Source: Candidatus Doudnabacteria bacterium
Lineage (GTDB): Bacteria; Patescibacteriota; Doudnabacteria; UBA920; VMFF01
Length of the DNA: 64,000 nucleotides
Direction of reading: 5' to 3'
NCBI GenBank assembly: GCA_028286905.1
Contig: JAQBQP010000002.1
Coordinates: 309,458 to 373,457, forward strand
Below the pieces are notes generated by a model that ran no database searches, was not told where the DNA came from, and was given only the letters and a program-made list of their open reading frames with translations. The position numbers were made by a program, and so were the translations under genes. Of the stretch, positions 26,996 through 56,250 are shown piece by piece; position 1 is the stretch's first letter; each line of letters starts with the position of its first letter.

Positions 26996-27064
26996 CTCTC
27001 CCCTGTTTTAACTTACCCACAAGAAAATTGCCGTGATCGCTTGCGCTACAGTGTGCGAAACAAA
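26996..27064. repeat. about 68-nt imperfect direct repeat, copy A (upstream of the PHP-ATPase promoter)
   Basis: ctctcccctgtttt...gatcgcttgcgctacagtgtgcgaaacaaaagag is about 78% identical to copy B at 27389-27456. Confidence 0.6.
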
Positions 27065-27095
27065 AGAGTACAATATCTGAATATCGTACTCTTAC
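27065..27095 (-). terminator. Rho-independent terminator after the 65-aa ORF
   Basis: AGAGTAC-N14-GTACTCT hairpin followed by TTTTGTTT on the minus strand. Confidence 0.6.
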
Positions 27096-27118
27096 TGTTT
27101 ACAGGCGTATTCCCTAAA

Positions 27119-27316
27119 TCAAGGGTGTCTCCTCCTTCTGCTAGGTCCAATAGGCTCTTGGCTATGAGGCGCATGTCTAGACAACTCGACCCCTCTGCGG
27201 ATTGGGGCATATTCCTTGCGCGCCTGCTGCTCCGCTCGCCGTATCTCTTCTTGACCTTCGGGGGTATTGGGATCAGGAAATGGATACGCTTCCAAAATTT
27301 CCAAGTCGCTCGGCAT
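27119..27316 (-). CDS. small GC-rich ORF (65 aa), acidic N-terminus and basic C-terminus
   Basis: AAGGA SD 5-6 nt before the ATG; the stop is followed by hairpin AGAGTAC...GTACTCT plus a U-run on the minus strand. Local GC far above the host GC. Confidence 0.45.
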   Translation of the reverse strand: MPSDLEILEAYPFPDPNTPEGQEEIRRAEQQARKEYAPIRRGVELSRHAPHSQEPIGPSRRRRHP

Positions 27317-27388
27317 AAATTCCTTTGGTTGAGATAAATCAAGTATATTCCGAAATTTTTATAATGTCTAAAAAAGTTTTTTCTATTC

Positions 27389-27456
27389 TCTCCCCTGTTT
27401 TTAGTTGTTCACGAAAATGCCAGATCCCTTGCGCTACATTATGCAAAAAACAAAGG
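27389..27456. repeat. about 68-nt imperfect direct repeat, copy B (upstream of the 65-aa ORF promoter)
   Basis: ctctcccctgttttt...gatcccttgcgctacattatgcaaaaaacaaaggag; each copy abuts a minus-strand terminator hairpin. Confidence 0.6.
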
Positions 27457-27490
27457 AGCCCTAACATTGCTGTTGGGCTCCTTGTTTAAT
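27455..27490 (-). terminator. Rho-independent terminator after the ParB-like gene
   Basis: GGAGCCC-N13-GGGCTCC hairpin followed by TTTGTTTTTTGC on the minus strand. Confidence 0.65.
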
Positions 27491-27513
27491 GTCGGAAAAA
27501 ATTCCTCCTGCAA

Positions 27514-28500
27514 CTACCTGTTCGCTGCGACTCGGCTTACAATGCTCAGCACTCCGGGCGGCGCCTTCACTGATTGTCCGTCGATTGCCTCGTGCAGCTG
27601 CTGCATTTGGCTCTGAGCTTTCGCGATACTACGCAACATCCGCTGCTTGTCCTTGTCGTCCCTGTGTTCAAACATCTTCTTGAACTGGGACATTGGCATG
27701 TCCATCACGATCTTGGTATCGAGCGTCAGCCGATTCAGGAAGCTCTCTACTCGGCGATAGTCATCGCTGGGACGCATCCTACGACCGTCGACCTTCGCGC
27801 CGCCTCGCAGGCTCTGTAGTTGCTGCCCGATGTAGAACCGCGCTTCCTTCAAGTTCATGTCGCTGCCGATGATGTATCGAGCCATCTGCAACTGCCGGTC
27901 GAATGGAAACGGAACCAGCATCACTGCTGTATTGACTCCCAGCTGCTGGTCTTTCGGCAATTCCGGGTTTAGCAGTGCCTGAACTCGAGAGTCTAGCTTC
28001 AGCAAGCTGAGGTGCTTGCTGACCCAAGCGCTATCTCTAGCACATAGCGAGGCGAGCTCGCCTTGGGTACAGTTACCACGGTCTTGCTGCATCTTTTGCA
28101 GACCGAGCGCGACTTCCATGACAGTCATGTCTACTCTGCCGACATTTTCGAGGAACGCATGTTCGTGCTGCTTCTCTGGACTGCGACGCTCCGAGATAAT
28201 CGCCCGCAACTTGTAGTTGGGGTCGACTGCCCCGCTTGCGCGCCAGCGGCGTTCTCCGATGTTCAACCGGAAGCGCATACCCGGGTTTTTCGCGATCTCC
28301 TCTTCGGTCAGCACACAGACCTCTATCGGAGTATGCTGGCCCGTTGTTTTGATGCTGTCTTCCAATTCTTTCAACTCTATTGGATCGAAATACTTCCGAG
28401 GCTGAGTCGGATCTCGCAGAATCTCACTGCGGTCGATCTCCAGCACCATCCCAACGACTACATTTGAGTCTGAGTCCAATGTCCGCGACTTTCTCGGCAT
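27514..28500 (-). CDS. ParB/Spo0J-family protein (ParB N-terminal nuclease-like domain plus HTH), orphan with no parA partner, GC-rich
   Basis: 328 aa; NIGERRWRASG (ParB box II GERRWRA), ENVGR...(ParB ENLQR-like), HTH TQGELASLCARDSAWVSKHLSLLKLDSRVQALL collinear with the Spo0J HTH. AGGAGG SD 6 nt upstream. GC around 58%. Confidence 0.7.
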   Translation of the reverse strand: MPRKSRTLDSDSNVVVGMVLEIDRSEILRDPTQPRKYFDPIELKELEDSIKTTGQHTPIEVCVLTEEEIAKNPGMRFRLNIGERRWRASGAVDPNYKLRAIISERRSPEKQHEHAFLENVGRVDMTVMEVALGLQKMQQDRGNCTQGELASLCARDSAWVSKHLSLLKLDSRVQALLNPELPKDQQLGVNTAVMLVPFPFDRQLQMARYIIGSDMNLKEARFYIGQQLQSLRGGAKVDGRRMRPSDDYRRVESFLNRLTLDTKIVMDMPMSQFKKMFEHRDDKDKQRMLRSIAKAQSQMQQLHEAIDGQSVKAPPGVLSIVSRVAANR

Positions 28501-28572
28501 GCTATCCTCCTGGGACGGTAGCGTTATAAAACTAAGTAAATTATGCGCCTTATTTTAGGTAAAACAAATCTG

Positions 28573-28893
28573 CTACTGCTCAAGCCGATCTGAGACAAGT
28601 CGTGCGATCGCATTCGCTATTTTGTTCAAATGAGTTACTATTAAAAAATTTGGAATGTGTAATGTTGAAGACCCTGCTTGATCAGAATAATGCTCTCTTT
28701 TAAAATCTACTAAGATTTGCGTCGGGTTTAAATAATGCTGCAGCCCATCGACTTCTATGTTGAGTTTGATCTCTGGTATATAGATATCGACATGTTTATA
28801 ACCGTCCCAATGTTCAGTGAGTAAATTTATATTTCTTTTCCTTAGCGCAATAGCGAGACGTAAGGCTTGTTTAGTTCGGAAAATTTTTGGCAT
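28573..28893 (-). CDS. DUF559-like (Vsr/restriction-endonuclease-fold) small endonuclease-domain protein
   Basis: 106 aa; IEVDGLQH...D..R pattern of DUF559 endonuclease-domain proteins. Confidence 0.4.
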   Translation of the reverse strand: MPKIFRTKQALRLAIALRKRNINLLTEHWDGYKHVDIYIPEIKLNIEVDGLQHYLNPTQILVDFKREHYSDQAGSSTLHIPNFLIVTHLNKIANAIARLVSDRLEQ

Positions 28894-28923
28894 TGTTTAG
28901 CATTATTTAATGTTTCTTTCTAA

Positions 28924-29352
28924 TTATTCATTTAAAGCTTCAAGCATATCCTTTGCCATCTCCTGATCAGCATTTATAAGGTCCCCTAGCATCTCCTGTC
29001 TTTGTTCAAGCGTTAGCTCTGCCTGGTCATATTTTATCAAAAGATCTTGCACTGCTGGATCAACTGCCGCAGACAGCAAATTTAATCGATTAAGTTCTTC
29101 AGTCGCGGCTTGAACATAACCGATATCAGTCTTATAAACTTCGGTAACCTTAGCTATTCTTTGGCCATCCGCAAAGATGTATTTTACCGTAGGAAGTGAT
29201 TCCGCTTGGATTGCTTCTTTGAATAAAGTTAAGTCATTTTCTGAAAAGGTATTAAAAAAAGCAGTTCTAAAAAGTCCGGTTTCTGGAACAAAGGTTAAAA
29301 TGGCTCCGATTTTTAAATTATCTTGAAAAATAACAATGACTTTATTTTGCAC
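28924..29352 (-). CDS. hypothetical protein (142 aa), 11-nt overlap with the upstream HExxH gene
   Basis: ORF with host-like AT content; no recognisable motif. Confidence 0.4.
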   Translation of the reverse strand: MQNKVIVIFQDNLKIGAILTFVPETGLFRTAFFNTFSENDLTLFKEAIQAESLPTVKYIFADGQRIAKVTEVYKTDIGYVQAATEELNRLNLLSAAVDPAVQDLLIKYDQAELTLEQRQEMLGDLINADQEMAKDMLEALNE

Positions 29353-30340
29353 TGTGCACCTTTCGCTTAGATTTTTGTTTAGGCTGCACTATTTCGGAAC
29401 GGCGGCGGTTAGCTTTAGCCCAATCAAAATTCGGGTCATGCTTTTTTATGTAAGCTCGAAAAAGATCTCGATCCGCTTTTGGAATTGTGTAAATTTCATT
29501 AGTTAAAACCTTAGAGCCTACTTCTGCAAAGTATTCAGTTGCTTTATACTGTAGTTCTTTTTGCTTATCCGGATTGTTTATGCTTTCAACATAATCTGAC
29601 TTGTATCTGTCAGGTGATTTAACTCGTTGAATAATATCTTGTAAAAGTCGTAGTCTTTCTTCGGTGGGAACGGACCTTGCCCCATACCAATCCGAATTAT
29701 GCCAAATTTCGTGTAGAAGAGTAGAATTAATAATTCTGGAAGCGCTAAATGATTTGGTTGCTGAAATTTTAATCTCTTTAGTGCTGTAGTCTGCTACTCC
29801 ATCCGCATTTTTTTCTTCCAAATTATATTCTGAACTCATAAGCAGGTTCTGCTCAAAGGAAATAGAGTAAGTATTTTCTTCTAAGAATTTAGGTATGGTC
29901 TGCTCCATGACCGCAGAAATTTGTTGATTATTAACTGCCAGGGATTCGAAGCCAGTAACATGGACTTTGCGGTCTTCGCCTTCAGCTTTTATTTTTCTAT
30001 TTCCGCTCCATTCACGTATAATGTGCATATTTTCCAAATAATCGATCAGAGCAGTCCCTACTTCCTGACGCAATGAATCAGCTAATGGCTGTATGTCTCT
30101 ATTTATGCCTTTTTCATAAGCTTGCGCTGTTGCCGATCTCAGCACTTCACCAATTATTGGAAATTTTTCTATTCCTTGTTTCGCGGACCAAGTTCCGCTA
30201 ATTTCAAACAATATGTAAAACATGAGCCTGCCATGGCGGCCTAGGTGCTTAGTCGCAAATTTATTTAGACGATTGTTTAAATTATTAGCCTTATCGGCTC
30301 TTGAAGGTTCGTAATTTTCAGGAGAATATCTTTCTGGCAT
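29342..30340 (-). CDS. hypothetical protein with an HExxH zinc-metallopeptidase-like motif
   Basis: 332 aa; LLHEIWHNSDWYG contains HEIWH; no other family assignment possible by eye. Confidence 0.4.
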   Translation of the reverse strand: MPERYSPENYEPSRADKANNLNNRLNKFATKHLGRHGRLMFYILFEISGTWSAKQGIEKFPIIGEVLRSATAQAYEKGINRDIQPLADSLRQEVGTALIDYLENMHIIREWSGNRKIKAEGEDRKVHVTGFESLAVNNQQISAVMEQTIPKFLEENTYSISFEQNLLMSSEYNLEEKNADGVADYSTKEIKISATKSFSASRIINSTLLHEIWHNSDWYGARSVPTEERLRLLQDIIQRVKSPDRYKSDYVESINNPDKQKELQYKATEYFAEVGSKVLTNEIYTIPKADRDLFRAYIKKHDPNFDWAKANRRRSEIVQPKQKSKRKVHSAK

Positions 30341-30375
30341 GAATAAAGTATATCAGTTGGCATAAATTACTCCAA

Positions 30376-30404
30376 TTGCTAGGAAGCTTTAGTTTTGGTA
30401 TAAT
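30376..30404 (+). promoter_or_regulatory. sigma70-type promoter with an extended -10 (TTGCTA-N17-TGgTATAAT) for the 191-aa GC-rich gene
   Basis: -35 TTGCTA at 30376-30381, TG at 30396-30397, -10 TATAAT at 30399-30404. A 9/10 inverted repeat ATTCGTAAGG-N6-CCCTACGAAT lies at 30424-30452, between the promoter and the RBS. Confidence 0.6.
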
Positions 30405-30467
30405 TGATAATCGGTTCTATTCGTAAGGATATTCCCTACGAATCCCTCAAACCTCAAGAGGTGGCAT

Positions 30468-31043
30468 ATGCCTGTTTCGTGGCAAGTTATGCTCGTTGCT
30501 GTTTTGGTCATTTGGCCCGCAACCAAGTTGTACGATCGTTGGCAGCGCACTCAAGAAGTAAAGGAAAGCGAGCCGATTCCGAGTCCGGATGTCGTGGCGG
30601 TCTTCCGGAAATCCGAGGCTTTGCAGGTGTATGCCTGCAAACATTCCGGCCCGGAAACCTTTTCCATCTGGATCTATGGCCAGGAGCAGCAGTATTCAAG
30701 TGCGCCGCAGGCAGACCCGCTCTCACTGGTAACCTATACCACAAAGTGCCCGGAGTGCCTGCTGCGATCTTCCGAACAGTACATTCGGCGCTGCGCTGTT
30801 TGCGGCGGCCCGATCCTCGCTGGGGACAACGTTTCACTTCATGAGACCGCCGAGGAAGGTCTGCGTCTGGACATCGCCACCGAAGTGGCGCCGATGCAAG
30901 TTCTGGGTTGTGCCAAGCAGGAGTGCTGGCAAGGCGCGAACCTGCACGTTGGAATCTGGGATGGAGAGAAGGTTGTTCCATCTTATGGCGGTGGGACATA
31001 CAAAGAAACGCTCCTGGCGTTTCTCGCTACAGCCATTACATAG
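30468..31043 (+). CDS. GC-rich hypothetical membrane-anchored protein with a Cys-rich (CPEC...CAVC) zinc-ribbon-like segment
   Basis: 191 aa; strong SD AAGAGGTGG 4 nt before the ATG; N-terminal TM helix; overlapping ORFs on the other strand and in other frames are Arg-rich antisense artefacts. Confidence 0.55.
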   Translation: MPVSWQVMLVAVLVIWPATKLYDRWQRTQEVKESEPIPSPDVVAVFRKSEALQVYACKHSGPETFSIWIYGQEQQYSSAPQADPLSLVTYTTKCPECLLRSSEQYIRRCAVCGGPILAGDNVSLHETAEEGLRLDIATEVAPMQVLGCAKQECWQGANLHVGIWDGEKVVPSYGGGTYKETLLAFLATAIT

Positions 31044-31151
31044 GAGGAGTTTGCCGAGCATATAAAACATTGGTCGAAGTTGATCCAAACAAATGAGAGC
31101 CTGACCAGCTCTCTTTTCTTTTATTTCTTTATTATTTTTTTCAAACTAAAA

Positions 31152-31179
31152 GGAGCTGAATGCAATTGCAAGCAGCTCC
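31152..31179 (-). terminator. Rho-independent terminator after the two-gene GC-rich minus-strand operon
   Basis: GGAGCTG-N14-CAGCTCC hairpin followed by TTTTAGTTTG on the minus strand. Confidence 0.55.
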
Positions 31180-31208
31180 TCGTAGGTTGTAGTTCACACA
31201 CTTCTTGG

Positions 31209-31445
31209 CTAGTCCTCCCAGCTAATTCCGCTGGAGAGGCAGAGGCGGTGGGTTTCCACTTGCTCTGCCGTCATCTCCAAACGAAGCGGGAGCAAAGGTC
31301 GTGGCTGAACCTTAGGGGCGTAGAGCGAGCAGGATGTGTTACTGCACGGCTCGGAAATCAGCCGGGTCTGACCACATCTACTGCACAAGGCGCTCCTGAT
31401 GATGTGGTCATCGAAGGCCGCGATGCCCGTCAGGACCGCTTTCAT
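31209..31445 (-). CDS. GC-rich small Cys-containing protein (78 aa), translationally coupled to the upstream gene
   Basis: Start ATG overlaps the stop of the preceding gene (GAATGAAAGCG: ATGA overlap); followed by a terminator. Confidence 0.4.
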   Translation of the reverse strand: MKAVLTGIAAFDDHIIRSALCSRCGQTRLISEPCSNTSCSLYAPKVQPRPLLPLRLEMTAEQVETHRLCLSSGISWED

Positions 31446-31633
31446 TCGAACGGCAGCGGTGAGGCGCAGTGAGCACACTTCGCGCCATCGGGGGTCTGTT
31501 GACGACAGTTGCCGCACTGGATCTCCGGCCGCTGCGAAGCCGTCCGACTCACCGGCTCGGACGCTGGCCGTCCATTCGGAATCCGACTCGTCGAACGCAC
31601 GATCCTGGGTCCTTCATGCGAGGTTTCGGTCAT
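31442..31633 (-). CDS. GC-rich small zinc-ribbon protein (63 aa, C-terminal CGNC...CAHC)
   Basis: SD AGAGAGGG 5 nt before the ATG (MTETSHEG...); two CxxC pairs at the C-terminus. Confidence 0.45.
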   Translation of the reverse strand: MTETSHEGPRIVRSTSRIPNGRPASEPVSRTASQRPEIQCGNCRQQTPDGAKCAHCASPLPFE

Positions 31634-31741
31634 AGTGCCCTCTCTGGCCTGGTTGTTGTGAACTATTGATATCCCCCTGTGACTTGCACTTTCGTTTACT
31701 TTCTTGATTGTGCAATAAATCACGGAATAGTTCAAGCCCCT

Positions 31742-31758
31742 TTACTCCCCTGGCTCTA
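31742..31758. repeat. right copy of the island-bounding imperfect direct repeat, overlapping the PspC gene's 3' end
   Basis: TTACTCCCCTGGCTCTA compared with 24040-24058. Confidence 0.4.
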
Positions 31759-33409
31759 ATGTAGTTTGATCGTTTAACACCTGAGAAATTTTAGCTTTGC
31801 CGAAGTATACAGCGTTGCTAAAATCATTCAAGGTAATTTTCATAGTATTAAGAGCATTAATCCTTAAAGAAGCAAGGTCTTTACCAGAGACAACCGCATC
31901 TTTTGCAATAAAGTTCTGGCCATCAAAGTTAGAAGAATCTGCAGCTGAAAGAGCCAATGAGTCGGCGCTTCCATTTATGATGACATCGCCGCTATCTTTA
32001 ACACTAATATCTGCTTCTTTTGTTGTAACACCAAGATTTGCGGAAGCAACAGTGCCAACATTCAAAATAAGTTTATCGGTTTTTAAGTTTTCAGCATTGA
32101 ATTTTGTCCAGCCGTTCACATCTATTTCATCAATCTTAGGCATGGCTATTTCAACGTTTATAGTATTCCTACCGCCGCAAAAGAAACAGAATCTATGGTC
32201 TGATTTCTGAACGAACACTAAAGCATTATTTTTAACTTCAAAGGTTACTCGATCTAAATCAATTTGTCGGCCGGTTTCAGAAATATTGAATTTATCGCTT
32301 TGAACTAAATGGACGTGGTCGACCCCATGTAAATCTAATTTTGTAAAACCTTTAAGATCTATTGTTTTGGTTTGCTGCTGATATTCTGGACGGCTTTGAA
32401 TCTTATCAATATATGTCGGGCCAAAGCGAACCCACATAAATCCTGCGGCCATTAAGCCAATAAACCAAAGCCCTAATAAGCTAAACCCGCTCTTATAATT
32501 CAAAGCGTTTTTTCTAAACAATAATGTGACCGCAAGAAGCAGTACAAAAATTACAGGAATTAAAGCGATTAAATAAATTACAAATACTGAGAAGTAATAA
32601 TCTGGACCGCCGCTAATTTGGGCTAAAGGAAATTGAACATACGGTGAATGAGCATTAAACAGTAAATTTATTGCAGCAAACGTTATAGCGGCTAACATAC
32701 CCATTGCACCCAAACCGATAAATAATCCAATTAGCTTAGAAGCTATCTTCAGCGCTACTTTAAATAACACTCCAATTGCGGCCACTAGTTTTTCTAAGCC
32801 AGATCCGCCGTGGGTTTTAACGCGTTCTTTGAATTCATTCGCTTGAGTTTTTACAGATTTGATTTGATTATCAAGGTTGCTTAAGTTAATTGCTTCGCCG
32901 CGCATTTCCATTTTTTCAGTTGGAGTTTTCGCTTCAGGCAGGACTAGCCATAAAATTAAGTACAATAAAATTCCGCTACCGCCAAACAGTACAATAACTA
33001 TAAAAACTAACCTGACGATTAACGGATCAATGCCAGCATAGGCTGCCAATCCAGACGCAACTCCGGCAACGATTTTATTATCCGCATCACGCATAACTCT
33101 GCGGCCGCCAAATCTAGTTTGCTTGGTGGTGTGATCGGTGGATGAATCCGCGCCTTCTTGAAAATCTGCAGTAGTTCCCATTGAGGCAATTAAATTTTCA
33201 ACATCGTTTTCGCTGATAATCTTGCTTTTGCTATCATCAGAAAAATGCTCAGCAATTCTGCTTTCCATGTCTTTGATAATTTCTTCGTGGTCTGGATAAG
33301 AGCTAAAGTGTTTTTTGATGCTTTCGAGATATTGTTCAAGCTTGGCGTAAGCGTCCTCTTCAATATTGAATATTGTTCCGCCGATGTTAATGTTAATTGT
33401 TTTTTTCAT
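31742..33409 (-). CDS. PspC-domain membrane protein with N-terminal and C-terminal toastrack-like (DUF4097-like) regions
   Basis: 555 aa; central PspC motif (KIVAGVASGLAAYAGIDPLIVRLVFIVIVLFGG), several TM helices, beta-rich C-terminus. Confidence 0.75.
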   Translation of the reverse strand: MKKTININIGGTIFNIEEDAYAKLEQYLESIKKHFSSYPDHEEIIKDMESRIAEHFSDDSKSKIISENDVENLIASMGTTADFQEGADSSTDHTTKQTRFGGRRVMRDADNKIVAGVASGLAAYAGIDPLIVRLVFIVIVLFGGSGILLYLILWLVLPEAKTPTEKMEMRGEAINLSNLDNQIKSVKTQANEFKERVKTHGGSGLEKLVAAIGVLFKVALKIASKLIGLFIGLGAMGMLAAITFAAINLLFNAHSPYVQFPLAQISGGPDYYFSVFVIYLIALIPVIFVLLLAVTLLFRKNALNYKSGFSLLGLWFIGLMAAGFMWVRFGPTYIDKIQSRPEYQQQTKTIDLKGFTKLDLHGVDHVHLVQSDKFNISETGRQIDLDRVTFEVKNNALVFVQKSDHRFCFFCGGRNTINVEIAMPKIDEIDVNGWTKFNAENLKTDKLILNVGTVASANLGVTTKEADISVKDSGDVIINGSADSLALSAADSSNFDGQNFIAKDAVVSGKDLASLRINALNTMKITLNDFSNAVYFGKAKISQVLNDQTTLEPGE

Positions 33410-33779: not shown

Positions 33780-33881
33780 GGTACTATTTTGTGGATAACC
33801 AATAGAAATAGATAATCCTCTAATGTTTGCGTAATATTTTAGGAAGATCTATCCTATAGGTGGTCTATTAAACTAAAAATT

Positions 33882-34229: not shown

Positions 34230-34237
34230 ATCGGGAT

Positions 34238-36074: not shown

Positions 36075-36075
36075 A

Positions 36076-37909: not shown

Positions 37910-39175
37910 ATGCAATATGCATTTATCCTAGGGAGGGTATATACATTATCAATTGCCGAGCTTATCGAAGTTCTGCAATCTCATGATATTACTTTTAAAA
38001 TTTTAATCGTTTCAATTGAAGTTCTTATTATTGAAACCGAAGTTCAAATCGACCACGAAAAGCTTCAAAGAGAGCTTGGTGGAATTATTAAGATTGCGAA
38101 AATCATCGATTTTATCAAAAAACGCGAACAAGATTCAATTAACTTTGCGCTTCAAAATTATTTTAAACCTAGTAAATTAAAAAAAGATTATTTCAAAGAC
38201 TACACTGGCAAAAAACAATTTGGCTTAAGCATTTACCTGCTCGACCAAACTGTTAAAGCTTTCGGCGAACCGCGCCGCTTGGGAATGTTTATTAAAAAAG
38301 GTTTGCAAGATGAGGGCGCCTCAATTCGTGCTTGTTTGCCTGAATATAATTCCCTAGCATTGGCATCCGTGGTGGTAACTAAAAATTTGTTACTACAGAA
38401 GGGTGCAGAAATTATCGTTATTGCCGGAATTGATCGGGTTTATGTTGGCAAAACCTTGATTGTCCAAGATTTTGAAGATTATGGCCGCAGAGATTATCAG
38501 CGACCTATTCGAGATGAGAAACAAGGAATGATCCCCCCAAAAGTTGCACAAATTATGATTAATTTCACTCAAGCAAAAAAAGGATCTACTTTGCTTGATC
38601 CATTCTGTGGAATTGGAACAATGGTTCAAGAAGCGGTTCTTTTGGGTTACAAAATGGATGGGTCGGACATCGCCAAATTTGCGATTAATGGCAGCGAAAA
38701 GAATCTTGAATGGTTCAAAAACCGTTACAAAATACCGGCTGGTAAATGGAAGCTGGAAGTAGCTGATGCAAGGAAGATCTCAGAGGTCTTTAAGGGCGAA
38801 AAATTCGCTGCTATCGCAACCGAAGGCAGCCTTGGACCCATTTATGGTTCCTTGCCAAAACCGGCCTTGATGGAGCAAAATTTTGCCGAATTGACAGACA
38901 TTTGGCTGGACACCTTCAAAGAATTTAAGAAAATCCTTGAAAAGGGAGCCAGGGTAGTGGTTTGCTTCCCGGCCTACAAGTTAAATGACCAAGATTACAT
39001 GTTCTTCCCCGCCGTTGACCAAATCTTAGAATTAGGTTATTCTATACATGATCATTTTCCGGAAGCAGTTAAGAAAATCGCTCCGTTTCTTAAGGTTACA
39101 GAGCGCAATTCTATGATCTACGACCGCAAAGATCAGGTCGTGGCTAGAGAAATAGTCACGTTCATTAATAATTAA
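37910..39175 (+). CDS. putative RNA (guanine-N2)-type methyltransferase, UPF0020/Trm11/Trm14-like Rossmann MTase
   Basis: 421 aa; LDPFCGIGTM SAM-binding motif typical of N2-G/N6-A RNA methyltransferases; N-terminal domain unassigned. Confidence 0.5.
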   Translation: MQYAFILGRVYTLSIAELIEVLQSHDITFKILIVSIEVLIIETEVQIDHEKLQRELGGIIKIAKIIDFIKKREQDSINFALQNYFKPSKLKKDYFKDYTGKKQFGLSIYLLDQTVKAFGEPRRLGMFIKKGLQDEGASIRACLPEYNSLALASVVVTKNLLLQKGAEIIVIAGIDRVYVGKTLIVQDFEDYGRRDYQRPIRDEKQGMIPPKVAQIMINFTQAKKGSTLLDPFCGIGTMVQEAVLLGYKMDGSDIAKFAINGSEKNLEWFKNRYKIPAGKWKLEVADARKISEVFKGEKFAAIATEGSLGPIYGSLPKPALMEQNFAELTDIWLDTFKEFKKILEKGARVVVCFPAYKLNDQDYMFFPAVDQILELGYSIHDHFPEAVKKIAPFLKVTERNSMIYDRKDQVVAREIVTFINN

Positions 39176-39184
39176 CATAGCACC

Positions 39185-39466
39185 ATGGCACATAAGAAAG
39201 CCGGAGGCAGTACAGCCTTAGGCCGCGATAGCGTTTCCAAGAGACTTGGAGTAAAAATCTTCGGAGCACAGAAAGTCGAGCTCGGCAATGTAATTGTCCG
39301 ACAACACGGTAGCAAATTCAGACCTGGAAAAAACGTGCGAATGGGTGGCGATGGCACATTGTATGCAGTCGCATCTGGAGTTGTTAAGTTTAGCAACAAA
39401 AAGATCAAGCGCTTCCACGGAGGCCTTGCAAAGACCCGAATAGTGAACGTTATACCTGCGGCGTAG
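39185..39466 (+). CDS. rpmA: 50S ribosomal protein L27
   Basis: 93 aa; [16 protein letters not shown]...IVRQHG..F.PG.NV L27 signature. Confidence 0.9.
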
Positions 39467-39510: not shown

Positions 39511-39610
39511 TTCTGAACTTAAGCTTGCTAAAACATAAAAAATATGGTAGACTGTGAAAATAGTTTGGAACGCTCTGTTCCGACTACAAACTCTTTACAA
39601 AGGTGTACGC

Positions 39611-40156
39611 ATGAACGCTTGGGAAAAAGAAATGTACCCGCACGCCCACACCAACCCTCGTGAGAAGCGCCTAATGGAGCATGACCATATGGCGCGTGGG
39701 TTTCTTCTGTTGTGGGTATGCTTAGCCTTCGGGCTTTGTGCCTATCAACAGCAAAACAGCCCGTACCCCCAACTCTCCGGAGTTGGTGTAGTTATCGCGA
39801 TTGCTTGTTCGCTCTGGGCAGTAAGGTTGTTTCGTTCTGCGTATGTGCTCAGCAAGCATCGGGCGACGATCCTCAGGGAACATCAAGTGTCCGACATCCG
39901 TTTGGTGCATTCCCCGGATGCGAGCTGGAAGATCAACCAGCTCATGACAGAGATAACCTTGAAAAGCCTTCAGTACGACGCGATCTGCAACGATCTACAG
40001 GGCAAAGCGGATCCGAAAAGCGACGTTGATCGTGCCCTGGCCAAACAGGCAATGCAGGATGCCTATCGTCAGCATCACGACTACGTTCAAGCTCTAAAGG
40101 CTTTCCGTTACCTCGTCGCGGGACCCGTCAAGACATCCAAGGGCCGCAAATTCTGA
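39611..40156 (+). CDS. GC-rich hypothetical 2-TM membrane protein (181 aa)
   Basis: SD AGGTG 5 nt before the ATG (MNAWEKEM); upstream TTGCTA-N17-TAGACT promoter-like sequence; GC far above the flanks. Confidence 0.5.
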   Translation: MNAWEKEMYPHAHTNPREKRLMEHDHMARGFLLLWVCLAFGLCAYQQQNSPYPQLSGVGVVIAIACSLWAVRLFRSAYVLSKHRATILREHQVSDIRLVHSPDASWKINQLMTEITLKSLQYDAICNDLQGKADPKSDVDRALAKQAMQDAYRQHHDYVQALKAFRYLVAGPVKTSKGRKF

Positions 40157-40171
40157 CCATGGGAGTATGCC

Positions 40172-40414
40172 ATGCAATTCAGCGCAGATATCGAGATTGT
40201 CCGGAGGAACTGCGGCCGTGAACCGATCGAAAGCAATCGGGAACAAATTTCCGCAGCTCTGCGTCGGATGCGATTGTATCTGACCGGAATGCCGGAAATC
40301 GAGAAAAGCTCGGTGCGAGTCACTGATGCAATCGGAGTGCACGAGCAATTGTCGACAATCGCGGAAAACGCTCAGGCGACCATTCAGGCCGCCGAGCGTC
40401 TAGGCTACCATTAG
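40172..40414 (+). CDS. GC-rich hypothetical protein (80 aa)
   Basis: SD GGGAGT 5 nt before the ATG, 15 nt downstream of the previous gene; followed by two hairpins. Confidence 0.45.
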   Translation: MQFSADIEIVRRNCGREPIESNREQISAALRRMRLYLTGMPEIEKSSVRVTDAIGVHEQLSTIAENAQATIQAAERLGYH

Positions 40415-40457
40415 CCTACAACCTACAGGAGGTTGTATAACTCCATAGAAAACAGAA

Positions 40458-40500
40458 AAGAGCCCCAACGATAAAACGTTCGGGCTCTTTCTATTTTATA
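40458..40500. terminator. bidirectional intrinsic terminator between the GC-rich cassette and pyrG
   Basis: AAGAGCCC-N16-GGGCTCTT flanked by an A-run and a T-run. Confidence 0.65.
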
Positions 40501-47575: not shown

Positions 47576-47585
47576 AAGATTTCAA

Positions 47586-48314: not shown

Positions 48315-48331
48315 ATAAAAATTATGACTTA

Positions 48332-49870: not shown

Positions 49871-49888
49871 AGGATTCTGTTAAACGCT

Positions 49889-50476: not shown

Positions 50477-50562
50477 CTTTTTTACTTTTAATTTCAGTTT
50501 AATTTATATGACAATTGTAGCAGAAAATGCTACCCTTTTCTAGTATCTAACGGAGGAAACCA

Positions 50563-50733
50563 GTGCTACAGAATCGCGTGCCGATTATCCTGTCTGGGCC
50601 GACCAACCAGGAAACCCATTACTCCGCCTACTGTTTGGGAGCGTGGATGACCTTGTATTTGGCTCTCATTGCCTACCTGTTTCTTCGGGCCTTCCTTCGG
50701 AGATTGCCAAATTCTGAAAAGTACAAAAACTAA
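50563..50733 (+). CDS. GC-rich mini-ORF (56 aa, GTG start) encoding a single-TM peptide
   Basis: GGAGG SD 6 nt before the GTG; hydrophobic core AWMTLYLALIAYLFLRAFL; followed by AACCAACAG-N7-CTGTTGGTT plus a T-run terminator (50734-50762); GC far above the flanks. Confidence 0.35.
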   Translation: MLQNRVPIILSGPTNQETHYSAYCLGAWMTLYLALIAYLFLRAFLRRLPNSEKYKN

Positions 50734-50796
50734 AACCAACAGTGGGAGGCTGTTGGTTTTATGTTATCCATTGCTAGAATCAGACGAGTTTTAAAT

Positions 50797-51480: not shown

Positions 51481-51545
51481 ATCGTCCTTTCGACTTAGTG
51501 GTCCGCGCGTCGCTATTATAAGGCGGCGCTCCCACAATTAAAATT
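51481..51545 (-). promoter_or_regulatory. GC-rich structured leader upstream of rplA (candidate L1 autoregulatory leader)
   Basis: gggagcgccgccttataatagcgacgcgcggaccactaagtcgaaaggacg immediately 5' of the rplA ATG on the minus strand; unusually GC-rich for this genome. Confidence 0.35.
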
Positions 51546-51564
51546 AAATTAAACTCAAATTAAA

Positions 51565-51942
51565 TTATGCTTCTTTTCTTGCCAAGCTCCAGTGATACCA
51601 GAAAATCGGAATACTTACAATTAGAAAAGCTAGAGCTTGCGCAATATCCTGTTTTTTAGAGTTCTTTTGGTTCTCTAAATCAGCAGCGGCTTGCTCTTTC
51701 TGATATTCAGGATCACATACGACGTTCTTGTCTCCATTCGGTGTGCTTGGCTGTGCCGCGCACATTTGTGGATAGTTAACATATTGCTTTACGCCCAACA
51801 CGGATTTTAAACCCATGTTTACCAACATTGTTGCGCCGATAATAATTATTATCAGAGAAACCAGCGAAACTAGATACAAATAAGTTTTTTTCATCCAAGG
51901 CATGTTATTTTTTCTCCAATGATAGGAACTCTTTAATGTCAC
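51565..51942 (-). CDS. small membrane protein (N-terminal TM, C-terminal TM) of unknown function, NfeD-like position next to an SPFH gene
   Basis: 125 aa; overlaps the upstream SPFH gene by about 38 nt. Confidence 0.4.
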   Translation of the reverse strand: MTLKSSYHWRKNNMPWMKKTYLYLVSLVSLIIIIIGATMLVNMGLKSVLGVKQYVNYPQMCAAQPSTPNGDKNVVCDPEYQKEQAAADLENQKNSKKQDIAQALAFLIVSIPIFWYHWSLARKEA

Positions 51943-52663
51943 TAACAGTGCTCATAAATTGAGCTGGGAAAATAATTGTAGAATTCTTCTCGCTTGCTAT
52001 TTCAGCCATAGTCTGCAAATTTCTTAACTGTAAAGCAATCGGATGTGCCATCATAATATCAGCCGTATCTGCCAATCTTTGTGATGAGAGGTATTCACCT
52101 TCAGCCGCAATAATCTTTGCGCGTTTTTCTCTTTCAGCTTCGGCTTGTTTAGCCATTGCACGCTGCATAGACTCCGGCAATTCGATGTCTCGGATTTCAG
52201 TATTTACAACTTCAACACCCCAAGGCTCAGTATGTTCATCAAGAACTTTCTTGATTTCCATATTGATTTGGTCTCTTTCGCTTAGAATTTCGTCTAATTG
52301 AAATTTTCCAACGATGTTCCGAATTGAGGTTTGGGCAATCTGATCGATTGCGATTCTAACGCTTTCAATCGCCACAATGCTTTTAGTAACGTCGGTTATT
52401 CTGTAATATGCAACGGCAGAAATATCTACCGAGACGTTGTCTTTGGTAATAATTTTCTGCGGCGGTACTGGCAAAGTAACAGTTCTTAAATCTACTTTGC
52501 GAATTTTTTGCACGTACGGAATTAATAGGTTCAAGCCAGGTTCTCTAATTCCAACAATTTTACCAAACTGGAACACTACCCCTTTTTCGTATTGTTGGAC
52601 AACTCTTAACCCAGGCAGAACGATGGACAGCAAGACAAATACTATTATATAGATTATGAGCAT
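51905..52663 (-). CDS. SPFH/band-7 (stomatin/prohibitin-like) membrane protein
   Basis: 252 aa; N-terminal TM, band-7 domain with a C-terminal coiled coil (AEAEREKRAKIIAAEGE). Confidence 0.8.
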   Translation of the reverse strand: MLIIYIIVFVLLSIVLPGLRVVQQYEKGVVFQFGKIVGIREPGLNLLIPYVQKIRKVDLRTVTLPVPPQKIITKDNVSVDISAVAYYRITDVTKSIVAIESVRIAIDQIAQTSIRNIVGKFQLDEILSERDQINMEIKKVLDEHTEPWGVEVVNTEIRDIELPESMQRAMAKQAEAEREKRAKIIAAEGEYLSSQRLADTADIMMAHPIALQLRNLQTMAEIASEKNSTIIFPAQFMSTVSDIKEFLSLEKK

Positions 52664-52687
52664 GCTTTTTTAGTTTAAAAATTTCTA

Positions 52688-53116
52688 CTAAATAACGTCT
52701 ACGCCCATTGATCGCGCGGTGCCCGCAACAATCTTTTGAGCAGCTTCGATATCGTTAGCATTCAAATCCACCATTTTTCTTTCAGCAATTTCTTTGATCT
52801 GAGCTTTGGTAATTTTACCAACCTTTATTTTCAAAGGGTTTGCGGAACCTTTTTCCAAACCGATCATTTTCATAATCAATACAGAAGCTGGCGGAGTTTT
52901 CAAAATGAAACTGAATGTTCTGTCTTCATAAACAGTTACCACAGCCGGAACTGTGATATCGCCCATTGGCGCGGTCTTTTCATTGAACTCTTTTGTAAAC
53001 TGACCGATGTTGATACCATGGGGTCCAAGTGCGGTACCTACTGGTGGCGCAGGAGTCGCCTTTCCAGCTTGTAGCTGAATCTTTACTAACGCTTTAATCT
53101 TCTTTGGAGCTGCCAT
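52688..53116 (-). CDS. rplK: 50S ribosomal protein L11
   Basis: 142 aa; [25 protein letters not shown]...FTKEFN L11 signature. Confidence 0.9.
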
Positions 53117-53227
53117 TTCTTTTGCTGTAGTAGCCTCTTGATAGAGACGAGATTTCGATCGTAATCGAAACCGACTACCCTTTCTTTATTGCCTTTTTTA
53201 AGGCATTTAATTATGTAATATTATAGT

Positions 53228-53773
53228 TTAACTGCGTTTAACTTGCAAGAAGTCTAACTCTACCGGAGTTTCGCGGCCGAAGATGGAAACCAAGACCTTA
53301 ACCTTGCCTTTAGCCTCGTCTACATCAGAAACCTTACCTTCGTATTCTTTAAATGGTCCATCCATGATTTTAACTAAATCATTAAGTTGGAAATCCACTT
53401 TAAACTTAGGCTCTTCAACACCCATGCGCTTCTGTAAGAACTTAATTTCTTCTTCAGAAATTGGAGTTGGAATAGTTCCAGAACCAACGAATCCAGTTAC
53501 GTTAGGAGTGTTTCTTACAACATACCAGGAATCGTCTGTAACAATCATTTCGACAATAACGTAACCTGGGAAGATCTTTTCTTCAAAAGTACTTCTTTTG
53601 CCGTCGCGAATTTTAATCTTTTTTTCTTTAGGGACGACTACATCAAAAATTTTGTCTTCCATGCCCATTGATTCGATACGCTGCTTTAAGTTAAAAGCGA
53701 CGCTATCTTCGTAGCCGGAGTATGTATGTAGTACATACCAATGTTTTTCCCCTGTGACGTGTTGTCGTGACAT
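53228..53773 (-). CDS. nusG: transcription termination/antitermination factor NusG
   Basis: 181 aa; WYVLHTYSGYE NGN domain, C-terminal KOW (GPFKEYEGKV). Confidence 0.85.
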   Translation of the reverse strand: MSRQHVTGEKHWYVLHTYSGYEDSVAFNLKQRIESMGMEDKIFDVVVPKEKKIKIRDGKRSTFEEKIFPGYVIVEMIVTDDSWYVVRNTPNVTGFVGSGTIPTPISEEEIKFLQKRMGVEEPKFKVDFQLNDLVKIMDGPFKEYEGKVSDVDEAKGKVKVLVSIFGRETPVELDFLQVKRS

Positions 53774-53775
53774 AT

Positions 53776-54336
53776 TTATTTAGCGATTAAAATTAATGCG
53801 ATAACAATTAAAATTATTTCTAGGTAACCATTTCTTGTAAAATATTCTCTTTTAGCAACTGACCACCAATATTTCCAGAAGCCCGCAACGTTTACACTCT
53901 GATCTTTTTTATCTCCGGCATACTTCCTTTGATAATAAGAATCTGAAAGCGGATAAAGCTTTTTATTAAATGGCCAAGCCCACATTACCCCCCATTCAGA
54001 ATCTAAAATAAAATGGGTCCAAGAGCATAACCAGATTAACAGTCCTAAAGCTTTGTAGAACGGACTCGCGGCGAAAAAAAATGTCAGTAGTCCAGCAATC
54101 AGCCATAGAATTGGTGCATGAGTAATAAAAGTGCGATGGCTAACTTTCTGATTATCAATCCGTAAAGATTTAGTTTTAAAAAATGCGTAAAAGAAATCTA
54201 GATCTGGCACAAATGCAATAAAAATTCCGAGTAAAGTTAGAGTTGTGGTTTGTTCTGAAGTTAGAGAGTAATTTAAATAACTCAAAACCGCTTTGGAAAC
54301 GACATACCCGGCAGCAATGTGTCCAGGTGGCAACAT
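53776..54336 (-). CDS. membrane-bound metal-dependent hydrolase, YdjM-like
   Basis: 186 aa; N-terminal PGHIAAGY, multiple TM helices, conserved His/Asp/Glu residues; family call from pattern only. Confidence 0.4.
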   Translation of the reverse strand: MLPPGHIAAGYVVSKAVLSYLNYSLTSEQTTTLTLLGIFIAFVPDLDFFYAFFKTKSLRIDNQKVSHRTFITHAPILWLIAGLLTFFFAASPFYKALGLLIWLCSWTHFILDSEWGVMWAWPFNKKLYPLSDSYYQRKYAGDKKDQSVNVAGFWKYWWSVAKREYFTRNGYLEIILIVIALILIAK

Positions 54337-54521
54337 TATTGGTTAATTACCTTCTCTAAGATTCTGATCAACAAATAGTCTGCTCCGCCCAACACAACTG
54401 CAACTAGCACTGAAAAAACAATTACTGTAGCGGTGTATTTTAAAGTCTGCTCTTTAGTAGGCCAAACTACTTTGTAAAGCTCTGCTTTCACTTCAACAAA
54501 AAATTGAGTAACTTTTGACAT
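54336..54521 (-). CDS. secE: preprotein translocase subunit SecE
   Basis: 61 aa; single C-terminal TM; EVK.EL.KV.WP motif; position upstream of nusG. Confidence 0.8.
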   Translation of the reverse strand: MSKVTQFFVEVKAELYKVVWPTKEQTLKYTATVIVFSVLVAVVLGGADYLLIRILEKVINQ

Positions 54522-54635
54522 ATTTAGCGATTAATACTAATAAGTTTTTAAGCTTTTTTAAAAGGCCCGGGAGGCCTTTTGATATTTCGATTATAGCACA
54601 TATGCTCATACTTTAGCAACTTCTGTTTTTCAATC

Positions 54636-54664
54636 TTGACAAATAACTAATTATATTGTATATT
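54636..54664 (+). promoter_or_regulatory. consensus sigma70 promoter TTGACA-N17-TATATT driving the GC-rich secreted-protein gene
   Basis: Perfect -35 hexamer with 17-nt spacing to TATATT; about 70-nt 5' UTR to ATG 54731. Confidence 0.6.
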
Positions 54665-54730
54665 AATAAGATTTCTTTTCACCGCCCACGGAGGGCTAAT
54701 AATTTCACAATCTTGCCTAAGAGGTACGAG

Positions 54731-55579
54731 ATGACTAAGCGCATTCGTAATTTACTGTTGGCGCTGTCTGCCTGCTTCACGGTTCTAACGCCAGTCTCGG
54801 CATTCGCTCAGCGCGTCTACGTTCAGTCGAATATTCCTCCATTCGAGATCAACGGGTATATCTCGCTGGACGGCAGCAACTCGCTAACCAAGGGCGACAC
54901 CGCAACTGGACAGCTCGAAGGATTCATCGCGTTCCCGTTCAAGGAGAGCCTCGGCGCTTTCGCGAAGGTCCGTGCAGCTACCACCAATTCCAACGGCCGC
55001 TACTTTCGGACAATGGGTGGCATCGTCTTTGCTTTTGGCGACCAGGCCCAATTCGGGTTTGGCGGCGGCGAAGAGTTCCGAAACCGCAATTCTTCGGATA
55101 CGTGCGAGCGAGACACCCGTTTCACCTACAGCAACAACTACTGCTACGGCAGTAACTACGGTGGGTTCGATCGCAGCGCAGATGTCGTGATGGCCTACAT
55201 CTATACTCACGACAAGAACAGCCACTTTCGCGGCTCAGTGGAGGTTTCCCGGCTGAACGGCTATTACGGCTACAGCTATTCGTACAGCACGTACGACAGC
55301 AGGAATTCGTACGGCAGTTATTACGAACAGCCTGACGCCTACTATTATGACGCCGAATACATGTTCGCGATGTTTGGCACCGACCGCAACGGAACATCGC
55401 TGGGTGCAATGGCTCGGCGTCATACCGGCGTCGGCCCAAAGATCACGCTGAACATGGACAACTTCGTAATCGGCGCATTCGCAGGGTGGGACGCCGAACG
55501 TCCACAGCTGAACCCCGGCCACTCCACTGGCGCGGACAACCGGATGATTCTCTCAGTAAGCGCGATGCTTCGGCTGTAG
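54731..55579 (+). CDS. GC-rich secreted Tyr/Gly/Ser-rich protein (signal peptide, beta-rich; OMP-like composition)
   Basis: 282 aa from ATG 54731 (SD AGAGGTACGAG); signal peptide LLLALSACFTVLTPVSAFA-Q; Y/G/S/N-rich repeats; GC around 58%; followed by terminator CAGAGCACTT-N6-AAGTGCTCTG-TTTT at 55614-55648. Confidence 0.55.
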   Translation: MTKRIRNLLLALSACFTVLTPVSAFAQRVYVQSNIPPFEINGYISLDGSNSLTKGDTATGQLEGFIAFPFKESLGAFAKVRAATTNSNGRYFRTMGGIVFAFGDQAQFGFGGGEEFRNRNSSDTCERDTRFTYSNNYCYGSNYGGFDRSADVVMAYIYTHDKNSHFRGSVEVSRLNGYYGYSYSYSTYDSRNSYGSYYEQPDAYYYDAEYMFAMFGTDRNGTSLGAMARRHTGVGPKITLNMDNFVIGAFAGWDAERPQLNPGHSTGADNRMILSVSAMLRL

Positions 55580-55726
55580 CGCACGTTGTCGAGCAGATTG
55601 TGATGTCTCTGAACAGAGCACTTTGAAAGAAGTGCTCTGTTTTGATTTAGTCACTAAGCTTTATTTATTGACGTTTTAAATTGCTAAGTATAAAATAGCA
55701 AAGTACCAAACCCATACGGAGGTTGT

Positions 55727-56164
55727 ATGCTTTGTATACAGAACGGTAGTGCTGAAGACCGGGTTAGCCTGGCTGCGTCCATCCGCATCGGAATACGGAT
55801 GGACGTGGTGACCGAAGGCAAGGAAGCCTATCTCTACCGACCCTCGGTTGATATCGATAGGTACTGCGGCTGTGCGATGTTGATCGGCGCGGTAGGAAGC
55901 GTGGGAAACCTCGAAGAAACGATTTGTCGTTTCCGCACTGGCTGTCCGGGCAACCCGATCGATCGACTATCGCGAATCGTGGGGATTCCGAATGAGCTCG
56001 GACGAGAGGTGGAGCACCATCATCGTCTAGGCGTTAGCGCCTTCGAGATCGCGGAAGCGCTTGATTCGACACCTGTCGCCGCCAGAAACCTCACCCAGAA
56101 CAACGGCTTCGGTGGTATCACGGACTTGAGCCAACTGGGTTCACACGACCTGGCTTCAGCCTAG
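55727..56164 (+). CDS. GC-rich hypothetical protein (145 aa)
   Basis: GGAGG SD 4 nt before the ATG; upstream TTGACG-N17-TAAAAT promoter; followed by terminator AATACGCCG...CGGCGTATT-TTTG (56192-56230). Confidence 0.45.
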   Translation: MLCIQNGSAEDRVSLAASIRIGIRMDVVTEGKEAYLYRPSVDIDRYCGCAMLIGAVGSVGNLEETICRFRTGCPGNPIDRLSRIVGIPNELGREVEHHHRLGVSAFEIAEALDSTPVAARNLTQNNGFGGITDLSQLGSHDLASA

Positions 56165-56250
56165 GTTCAACCGTCTCGTATACAGAAAGCAAATACGCCG
56201 CCCTCTGAGATAAGAGAGCGGCGTATTTTGTTATTCGAGGGTGGACCTTC

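Follow-up and report, generated by a model that had tools for sequence, protein, structure and literature searches.

Small GC-rich gene cassettes beside a probable dif site and between core genes of a Candidatus Doudnabacteria chromosome

Introduction

Phage morons, a concept associated with Hendrix and Juhala, have been reviewed previously (PMC3594210), and integrative mobile elements exploiting Xer (IMEX) and dif modules are known to make use of host Xer recombination (PMC5357621, PMC9765430, PMC7399989). The present study compares such systems with five small gene modules, M1 (27041-28560), M2 (30350-31740), M3 (39512-40495), M4 (50530-50795), and M5 (54620-56250), in a 64,000-nucleotide stretch of DNA (hereafter the window; positions 309,458 to 373,457 of contig JAQBQP010000002.1, assembly GCA_028286905.1). 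According to public records, the source is a Candidatus Doudnabacteria bacterium of the Patescibacteria, or Candidate Phyla Radiation (CPR), with locus tags JWO40_... and a contig of 540,391 nt. The original prediction took the modules for foreign cargo captured repeatedly from a high-GC donor, with an assembly artifact or a synthetic insertion as the other options. Our analysis makes it more probable than not that they are genuine, chromosomally fixed accessory cassettes of two classes, one accreted at a probable dif site and the other inserted long ago between core genes.

Like morons, the modules consist of one gene or a gene pair with its own promoter and terminator and with a GC content unlike that of the neighbors (marginally so for M4); they sit between genes that are adjacent in relatives, and their products are often membrane or surface proteins. 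Unlike morons, they reside in a bacterial chromosome between housekeeping genes and are GC-richer than the host, and two of them appear ancient and vertically inherited. The likeness to IMEX elements and dif modules is confined to M1 and M2, which lie beside a 28-bp terminus site of 11-6-11 layout, are free of integrases, may have degenerate dif copies in their flanks, and seem to have accumulated in tandem. However, these candidate flanking copies are weak (20/28 and 18/28 matches), the window holds no Xer gene, and an excised circle was not seen. We know of no IMEX described in Patescibacteria, and made no exhaustive search for one.

Oliveira et al. (2017) reportedly described hotspots and islets of horizontal gene transfer between core genes, filled without mobility genes. 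The modules share with such islets the accessory DNA amid core genes, the empty sites in relatives, and the lack of integrase or transposase, whereas the M3 and M5 sites do not vary in content across the sub-clade, each keeping one cassette that diverges in place. O-antigen and capsule loci comprise large clusters of biosynthetic genes that are usually GC-poorer than the rest of the genome and whose alleles move by recombination. Fixed position, atypical GC, extreme divergence, and putatively envelope-related products recall these loci, but the similarity ranking of the modules looks vertical. Integron cassettes are usually promoterless, with an attC at the end, and stand in arrays next to intI. 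They resemble the modules in being small and discrete and in often encoding orphan proteins. In contrast, the modules carry promoters, have no integrase open reading frame (ORF), and show no shared imperfect palindrome at their ends, although this comparison used no dedicated attC model.

Members of the Patescibacteria have very small genomes and are generally assumed to rely on other cells. Published work on the group describes competence, homologous recombination, and genomic islands (PMC12455944).

Results

The window is a chromosomal segment whose genes include rpmA, pyrG, rplA, rplK, nusG, secE, gyrB, and thyX. For comparison, loci of relatives were fetched (L-numbers), of which about 160 to 170 were covered by profile searches. 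L085 and L086 are two NCBI assemblies carrying the M5 site, and L168 is the same genome as L085. L169, L170, and L171 are identical in three samples and are called L169 below, and L172 represents a further lineage; L168, L169-L171, and L172 were reached via members of the 90% cluster of L27. In the lineages that carry M3 or M5, host DNA is about 73 to 77% identical to the window. L002 to L006 form the next clade out (pyrG about 80% identical to that of the window). A related strain in metagenome JGI 3300064033 (the JGI strain) was used to count codon changes.

Overall GC content of the window is 0.394, and its host 250-nt windows average 0.383 (standard deviation 0.042). Against this background the anomaly is genuine for four of the five modules: M1 (GC 0.510, 250-nt peak 0.584, z 4.8), M2 (0.531, 0.640, z 6.2), M3 (0.510, 0.556, z 4.2), and M5 (0.526, 0.600, z 5.2). 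M4 is marginal (0.459, z about 2) and not clearly anomalous. Uniform composition, which the original prediction had named as its refutation, was not found, since sliding-window GC shows four islands 4 to 6 standard deviations above the host. The predicted set of five GC-rich modules is reduced to four by the position of M4 at about 2 standard deviations, and the predicted GC of 55 to 60% is true of the coding cores but not of the whole modules. GC at third codon positions (GC3) is 0.50 to 0.73 in module genes versus 0.29 to 0.44 in host genes. The dinucleotide-signature distance (delta*) between module and host is 134 to 168, and the 95th percentile of equal-size host segments is 125. Furthermore, module genes use CTG, CGG, CCG, TCG, ACG, and GGG, codons that host ribosomal-protein genes shun; therefore, the codon bias of the modules is not due to translational selection.

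These composition shifts are abrupt, and by themselves they would suit an assembly chimera, an interleaved contaminant, or a synthetic construct. However, a contig built by a second assembler (Logan SRR13312974_19415, run SRR13312974, 32,654 nt) equals window positions 23801-56454 at 100% and thus covers all five modules. The second sample, JGI 3300064033, carries the junctions of M2 and M5: one contig covers M2 at 95.8% and another covers M5 with the end of gyrB at 94%. Orthologous cassettes also occur in five other assemblies. The probability that the modules are artifacts or engineered insertions, both of which had been suggested, is therefore practically nil.

M3 and M5 occupy the same sites in distant relatives. 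The only homologue found for M5a (P0005) lies in the secE|gyrB gap of L085 and L086 and is followed by a 138-aa M5b orthologue; this gap is itself a GC island (0.50 to 0.56 vs 0.39). The left junction of M5, just past the secE promoter region, is identical in the window and L085. M5a is 34% identical to its L085/L086 orthologue (E 3e-39), and M5b is 31% identical to that of L085 (E 1e-6); host proteins at this locus are 60 to 96% identical between the window and L085 (GyrB 94%, NusG 96%). Look-ups of NusG, L11, and GyrB clusters, aimed at the M5 site of the L169 and L172 lineages, returned singletons. Similarly, the rpmA|pyrG gap of L168, L169-L171, and L172 contains a GC-rich two-gene cassette orthologous to M3a and M3b, with hidden Markov model (HMM) E values of 1e-68 to 1e-76 for M3a. 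Pairwise identity among the M3 cassette proteins is 0.20 to 0.40, compared with 0.69 to 0.93 for six host proteins, and it peaks in L168-L172, which is also the closest host pair. Since the similarity ranking of the cassettes follows that of the hosts, vertical descent is indicated.

Synonymous divergence (dS) has reached saturation (1.2 to infinity) between the window and L085, and host fourfold-site identity of 0.36 to 0.48 is near random expectation. As M3 and M5 have the same positions in lineages that are nearly saturated at synonymous sites, they would predate the split of these lineages, contrary to the recent repeated capture originally proposed. By their sequences, M3 and M5 appear to be old, vertically inherited residents that diverge fast. 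Host-like codon usage in modules shared with relatives at identical sites had been named as evidence against foreign origin; the sites are indeed the same, but the codon usage is still not that of the host. GC3 is 0.71 in M5a of the window versus 0.63 in L085, 0.62 versus 0.52 in M5b, and mostly 0.51 to 0.66 in M3 orthologues of four lineages. M3a of L168, at a GC of about 0.41, looks ameliorated.

The comparison of orthologous loci that the original prediction proposed also revealed empty sites, M3 and M5 being absent from the outgroup clade and M4 from L085. The pyrG-rpmA gap of L002 to L006, about 97 nt long, holds just a conserved bidirectional terminator, right after which M3 of the window starts. 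The gyrB-secE gap is 94 nt in L089 and 37 to 200 nt in most of 38 Patescibacteria loci, among which the larger gaps elsewhere are not GC-rich. At the M4 site, L085 has 59 nt where the window has 266 nt; M4 is thus either younger or was lost in L085. HMMs of M3a, M3b, M5a, and M5b found no further homologues in the fetched loci, which included relatives of 55 to 67% GC; with these HMMs empty among 160 related loci, a native GC-rich reservoir in relatives was rejected.

Other GC-rich cassettes were seen in relatives. L003 has a single 216-aa ORF of GC 0.50 at 16931-17581, between ABC ATPase and aminopeptidase N genes, and such examples suggest that cassettes of this kind are common in this genome family. 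L007 (pyrG 75 to 77% identical) carries a different GC-rich single-gene cassette in the pyrG|rpmA gap and a second GC island near arfC (2335-2866 and 4695-5403). The L007 cassette encodes a 118-aa membrane protein whose LAQEFGY is faintly like the M3b motif; as a distant M3 homologue it was rejected, an hhalign probability of 3.8% over 17 columns being a mere hint. Beside M3, the 3' half of a UPF0020 methyltransferase gene together with rpmA (38600-39466) shows raised GC3 (0.4 to 0.6). Fourfold-site GC of the methyltransferase gene is likewise up in L168 and L169, and GC3 is not raised in L002 to L006. An import tract, suggested by the comparison with L002 to L006, was discarded since fourfold GC is equally raised in the closer L168 and L169 and sliding identity was uninformative.

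The M1/M2 region has a different setting. A dif site spans about 28 bp, its two 11-bp half-sites forming an imperfect dyad on either side of a 6-bp center (PMC5357621). The 28-mer at 23798-23825, TTGTCGCATAA-GCTACA-TTGTGCGACAA, has this 11-6-11 build, its arms being complementary at 10 of 11 positions in imperfect dyad symmetry around the 6-bp center. Over the 64 kb of the replicon in view, most 2-kb bins as far as 24 kb have positive GC skew and most later bins negative GC skew, and gene orientation flips from + to - at 23.2-23.5 kb; the sign change and the orientation switch together place a replication terminus at the 28-mer. It is exact in L168, L169, and L172 and near-identical in L003 to L006, while its central 6 bp differ in L021. 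In every relative it adjoins the same conserved gene (orthologue of window 22665-23237), whereas its far side differs in content from lineage to lineage: L003 and L006 have a GC-rich zinc-ribbon gene pair with its own promoter and terminator, L005 has another gene, and L168, L169, and L172 have a small zinc-ribbon gene that is clearly GC-rich in L168. The small zinc-ribbon genes of all five of L003, L006, L168, L169, and L172 are built like those of M2. The Logan contig ends inside the 28-mer, at 23801. We regard the 28-mer as the probable dif site that marks the replication terminus and the left edge of an M1/M2 island. As a separate observation, the far side in L004 (20075-20323) carries the ORF of a HicA-like toxin and a 127-aa partner.

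From the GIY-YIG gene to the ABC ATPase gene, the window measures 10.7 kb versus about 1.4 kb in L168, L169, and L172. The additional DNA includes a non-coding stretch of 660 nt, a PDC-M49 pair, M1, three genes of host GC, M2, and pspC-padR-holin. The JGI strain shares M2 from 30350 onward, with unrelated AT-rich DNA as the left flank. Two degenerate dif-like sites on the + strand, R1 (27034-27061, 20/28 matches) and R2 (27422-27449, 18/28 matches, right arm TTATGCAAAAA), have a center identical to that of dif (GCTACA), are in the same orientation as dif, lie within a direct repeat of about 80 nt (families D4 and D5), and bracket the M1 65-aa cassette. A search with the 17-mer of right arm and center gave 3 matches where 0.14 were expected, a number that no shuffle out of 100 attained. 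This bracketing suggests accretion that may have been Xer-mediated. Best matches at M3, M4, and M5 were at chance level, and dif-like sites there were rejected. The scanned island proteins had no integrase or transposase domain, the 142-aa ORF at 28924-29352 being scanned by PADLOC only.

Between the dif-like site and M1 lies a candidate anti-phage pair of host-like GC on the - strand (24498-26894), PDC-M49B (114 aa, E 4.7e-31) and PDC-M49A (682 aa, E 2.2e-232), the latter with an N-terminal histidine motif of PHP-like look and an ATPase. Between the dif-like site and this pair, 23830-24498 (about 660 nt) has no ORF of at least 90 aa and is somewhat GC-richer than its surroundings; Rfam gave no match there at E<=1 besides a chance snoRNA. 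Upstream of the GIY-YIG gene (23250-23534), three close CACGTG-containing repeats (tcacgtg) at 23585-23635 look operator-like.

All modules are predicted to be protein-coding. M1 comprises, on the - strand, a 65-aa ORF (27119-27316, terminator 27064-27093) and a 328-aa ParB-family gene (27514-28500, GC3 0.68, terminator hairpin at about 27455-27490). The coding status of the 65-aa ORF is uncertain: its GC at positions 1/2/3 (0.62/0.52/0.50) is not typically coding and it has no homologue, although it is also predicted as a gene in the Logan contig. The larger product scores above the cut-offs of Pfam ParB_N (40.4 vs 26.3 bits) and HTH_ParB (35.8 vs 22.6 bits), and it matches ParB, Noc, and KorB in the PDB and ParB-like families of PHROGs. 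With an N-terminal CTP-binding domain carrying the GERRxRA motif (here GERRWRA) and a helix-turn-helix, it qualifies as a ParB/Spo0J/Noc-family protein. It is an orphan with no adjoining ParA gene, and its best non-self homologue is 30% identical. A sub-threshold Rfam match to ctRNA_p42d (27443-27485, - strand, 25.6 bits vs gathering 50) in the hairpin 3' of the ParB gene is most likely just the terminator.

M2 has a promoter and a 191-aa gene on the + strand (30376-31043, ORF 30468-31043), whose predicted product has an N-terminal transmembrane helix and a Cys-rich domain, with a terminator at 31095-31113. A convergent two-gene operon follows on the - strand (31209-31633), encoding a zinc-ribbon protein of 63 aa (31442-31633) and a Cys-rich protein of 78 aa (31209-31445); their ORFs overlap by an ATGA stop/start and have GC3 of 0.67 and 0.73. 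M3 (+ strand) opens with a TTGCTA-17-TAGACT promoter with a TGn extension (39525-39553), followed by M3a (39525-40156 with the promoter, ORF 39611-40156), a 181-aa protein with two predicted transmembrane helices, and M3b (40172-40492 with the terminator, ORF 40172-40414), 80 aa long with a C-terminal A[E/D]R[F/L]G[F/Y] motif and a bidirectional terminator at about 40456-40492. M5 (+ strand) carries a promoter with M5a (54636-55579, ORF 54731-55579, GC3 0.71), a Tyr/Gly/Ser-rich protein of 282 aa that is predicted to be secreted (signal peptide ...VSAFA|Q), and a second promoter with the 145-aa M5b (55668-56228, ORF 55727-56164), ending in a bidirectional terminator shared with gyrB (56191-56228). 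M4, the weakest member of the set, holds a candidate 56-aa hydrophobic membrane peptide (50563-50761, + strand) with a GTG start and GGAGG; its hairpin (50731-50761) also ends rplA.

In the 191-aa gene of M2, 17 sites differ from the JGI strain, 11 of them in third codon position; counted by codon, 11 changes are synonymous and 6 are not. Two alternative ORFs overlapping this gene behave in the opposite way. Synonymous and non-synonymous codon changes number 18 and 15 in M5b and 8 and 8 in M5a, and the 8 differing sites in the gyrB fragment are all in one codon phase. The third-position and synonymous excess, present in the proposed frames only, together with protein orthology across genomes, argues that the modules are coding, the M1 65-aa and M4 56-aa ORFs being the least certain genes. 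Pfam, PHROGs, and PADLOC gave no match for any module protein but ParB.

Each cassette is predicted, from consensus matches, to be transcribed independently, having a promoter, a Shine-Dalgarno sequence, and a terminator of its own. The sigma70 hexamers quoted earlier were all found, namely TTGACA-17-TATATT for M5a (54636-54664; 11/12, the best in the region), TTGACG-17-TAAAAT for M5b (55668-55696), and TTGCTA-17-TATAAT for M2 (30376-30404), but such promoter-like matches are only modestly more frequent in these AT-rich regions than in shuffles (36 vs 28.2, sd 5.2; 50 vs 34.9, sd 6.1). The strong Shine-Dalgarno sequences at ideal spacing could be read directly: AGGAGG, GAGGTG, AAGGTG, and GGAGG sit 5 to 7 nt before each module start. 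Intrinsic terminators are present at the gene ends where they had been seen, although the overall number of terminator-like sites (hairpin plus T-tract) is at the chance level of shuffles. With site numbers near those of shuffles, the information lies in the placement of promoters and terminators at gene ends and not in their count. It also proved correct that no host gene is interrupted by any module; the flanks, rpmA, pyrG, secE, gyrB, rplA, and dcd among them, keep host terminators and promoters conserved relative to relatives.

Discussion

The reading that we favor, of accessory cassettes in two classes, would work as follows. Class A (M1 and M2) would form a variable island of about 8 to 10 kb beginning at the probable dif, to which the host Xer recombinase may add cassettes in the manner of IMEX elements and dif modules, without an integrase of their own. 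Newer insertions, the PDC-M49 defense genes and M1, would have pushed M2 away from dif, making M2 the oldest and most distal layer, and the two degenerate dif copies with an identical 6-bp center would remain around one M1 cassette. Class B (M3 and M5, and less certainly M4) would derive from one insertion each, at rpmA|pyrG, secE|gyrB, and rplA|dcd, in an ancestor of a sub-clade, captured possibly by illegitimate or flank-assisted recombination after DNA uptake. Since then these cassettes would have been inherited vertically, diverging very fast, with products that may act at the cell envelope, in attachment or phage exclusion, under weak or diversifying constraint. The insertion mechanism, earlier called unknown, now has a candidate for M1 and M2 (Xer at dif) but none for M3, M4, and M5.

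Several of our results weigh against this reading. The full 28-mer scores of R1 and R2 (20 and 18) are matched by shuffles, which reach 17 to 20, so that their significance lies in the right arm and center. Neither the right end of the island nor M3, M4, and M5 showed a degenerate dif-like site above chance, and no Xer recombinase is among the translated ORFs of the window. The AlphaFold model of M5a, built from 3 sequences, was unusable (pLDDT 30), a PDB profile search gave nothing, and the functions of the products are wholly those that we infer. No donor or close homologue of any cassette was found in 5.8 billion clustered proteins, 1.84 billion representatives, or collections of viral, phage, and plasmid sequences; support for foreign cargo comes solely from composition. 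Finally, a crude F81-type estimate from host fourfold sites, based on few sites aligned at 30 to 40% identity, has each lineage keep at most about 0.41 of its initial compositional deviation. Under such decay GC3 of M5 should be well below 0.62 to 0.71, and the observed values need an impossible starting GC3. Either a sustained GC-favoring force or later allele replacement would then be needed, or the model is too crude. What ordinary explanations still leave uncovered is a single feature, namely the GC-rich, non-host codon usage that the ancient cassettes have kept.

This feature is the basis of the alternative that the cassettes are GC-rich and fast-diverging through a local, sustained process, such as selection for GC-rich or rare codons or for mRNA structure, strong GC-biased gene conversion, or repeated replacement of alleles from a co-diversifying, GC-rich extrachromosomal element. 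It would account for the GC3 of 0.52 to 0.71 in both lineages despite saturated dS, and for the same in M3 of four lineages. The ParB gene puts a gene typical of plasmids and phages in the GC-rich pool, and GC-rich cassettes recur in L003, L006, and L007 and in the target gene of a diversity-generating retroelement (DGR) in L008. However, no mechanism is visible, the window being without reverse transcriptase, template repeat, or repeats shared between cassettes; M3a of L168 has fallen to about 0.41 GC, as ordinary amelioration predicts, and the expected decay was itself estimated from few sites with a crude model. We therefore consider a sustained process unlikely. In its boldest form, to which we give an equally small minority chance, a Doudnabacteria sub-clade would keep small self-expressed operons at fixed intergenic sites near the terminus through a locus-specific GC force. 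Such operons would evolve several-fold faster than their neighbors and hold GC3 at about 0.5 to 0.7 against a genome equilibrium of about 0.33, by targeted GC-biased conversion or hypermutation, by selection for non-host codons, or by re-seeding from a co-diversifying GC-rich episome. Five recent and independent captures from a high-GC donor by an element-free mechanism, as originally proposed, would explain the foreign-like composition and codon usage, the absence of M3 from L002-L006 and of M4 from L085, and the lack of relatives of M1 anywhere. This is improbable, because M3 and M5 lie at the same junctions in lineages about 73 to 77% identical in host DNA with divergence following the host ranking, M2 and M5 are common to a 94 to 96% identical strain, and no donor emerged. 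Homologue searches with ParB and the 191-aa M2 protein in large protein sets returned self, the JGI strain, and one ParB at 30%; an M5a HMMER scan of the 1.84 billion representatives retrieved nothing beyond self, the same-species strain, and the syntenic orthologue; four module proteins scanned against IMG/VR had no relatives there; and phage and plasmid tblastn found distant ParBs only (at most 34% identity).

The absence of transposase, integrase, and terminal inverted repeats, noted from the outset, is borne out. No terminal inverted repeats or target duplications above chance occur at module boundaries, where the longest repeats (6 to 10 nt) are within the shuffle range, and no repeat or motif is common to the cassette ends. 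A transposon, insertion sequence, or MITE was rejected on these grounds. Prophage remnants or morons are a still less probable source: the architecture does agree with how morons are defined, by a promoter and terminator of their own and a deviant GC (PMC3594210), and ParB matches PHROG ParB-like families, but the flanks are housekeeping and not phage genes, the other module proteins have no match in PHROGs or IMG/VR, and a megablast against a phage collection found no DNA match. Very improbable is the possibility that the islands are structured non-coding RNA genes with ORFs as a by-product of scarce stop codons. Structured RNA genes stand out as GC-rich in AT-rich genomes, several long ORFs overlap in all frames of the islands, and each island has a promoter and a terminator. 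In contrast, Rfam at gathering score finds only a tRNA in the window and none in the modules (none at E<=1 in M4), the left part of M1 gives just a sub-threshold terminator-like match, the M4 fold (z -1.26) is no better than shuffles, and substitutions are frame-specific and synonymous-rich, in proteins whose homology extends over indels with signal peptide and transmembrane helices.

If the two-class reading is right, fast-evolving secreted, membrane, and zinc-ribbon orphans that carry strong expression signals could plausibly mediate attachment or phage/host conflict. The candidate dif site and its hotspot, if true, would extend Xer-exploiting integration to the CPR and explain integrase-free islands there. 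M3 and M5, as two positionally conserved orphan operons, may serve as sub-clade markers and as test cases for the speed at which CPR accessory proteins diverge. The cassettes are also a natural test of amelioration theory, in that either its rates do not apply here or another force acts; should ordinary amelioration account for the GC retention, what is left is a set of old islets gained by horizontal transfer, which would be of modest interest.

Other observations

In L008, a complete DGR lies at 3795-6985 between prfB-like and ftsE genes. It comprises an Avd-like gene, a reverse transcriptase, and a GC-rich 417-aa target (0.52 vs 0.38), in which the variable repeat at the C terminus corresponds to an Asn-rich template repeat downstream. 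When this reverse transcriptase and target were compared with the window by tblastn, no match had an E value below 0.39, and internal repeats were not found in the window. In the window, a Band_7 (SPFH) gene at 51905-52663, between DUF5671 and rplK, is missing in L085/L086, where a 37-aa remnant aligns; this is an indel of host GC.

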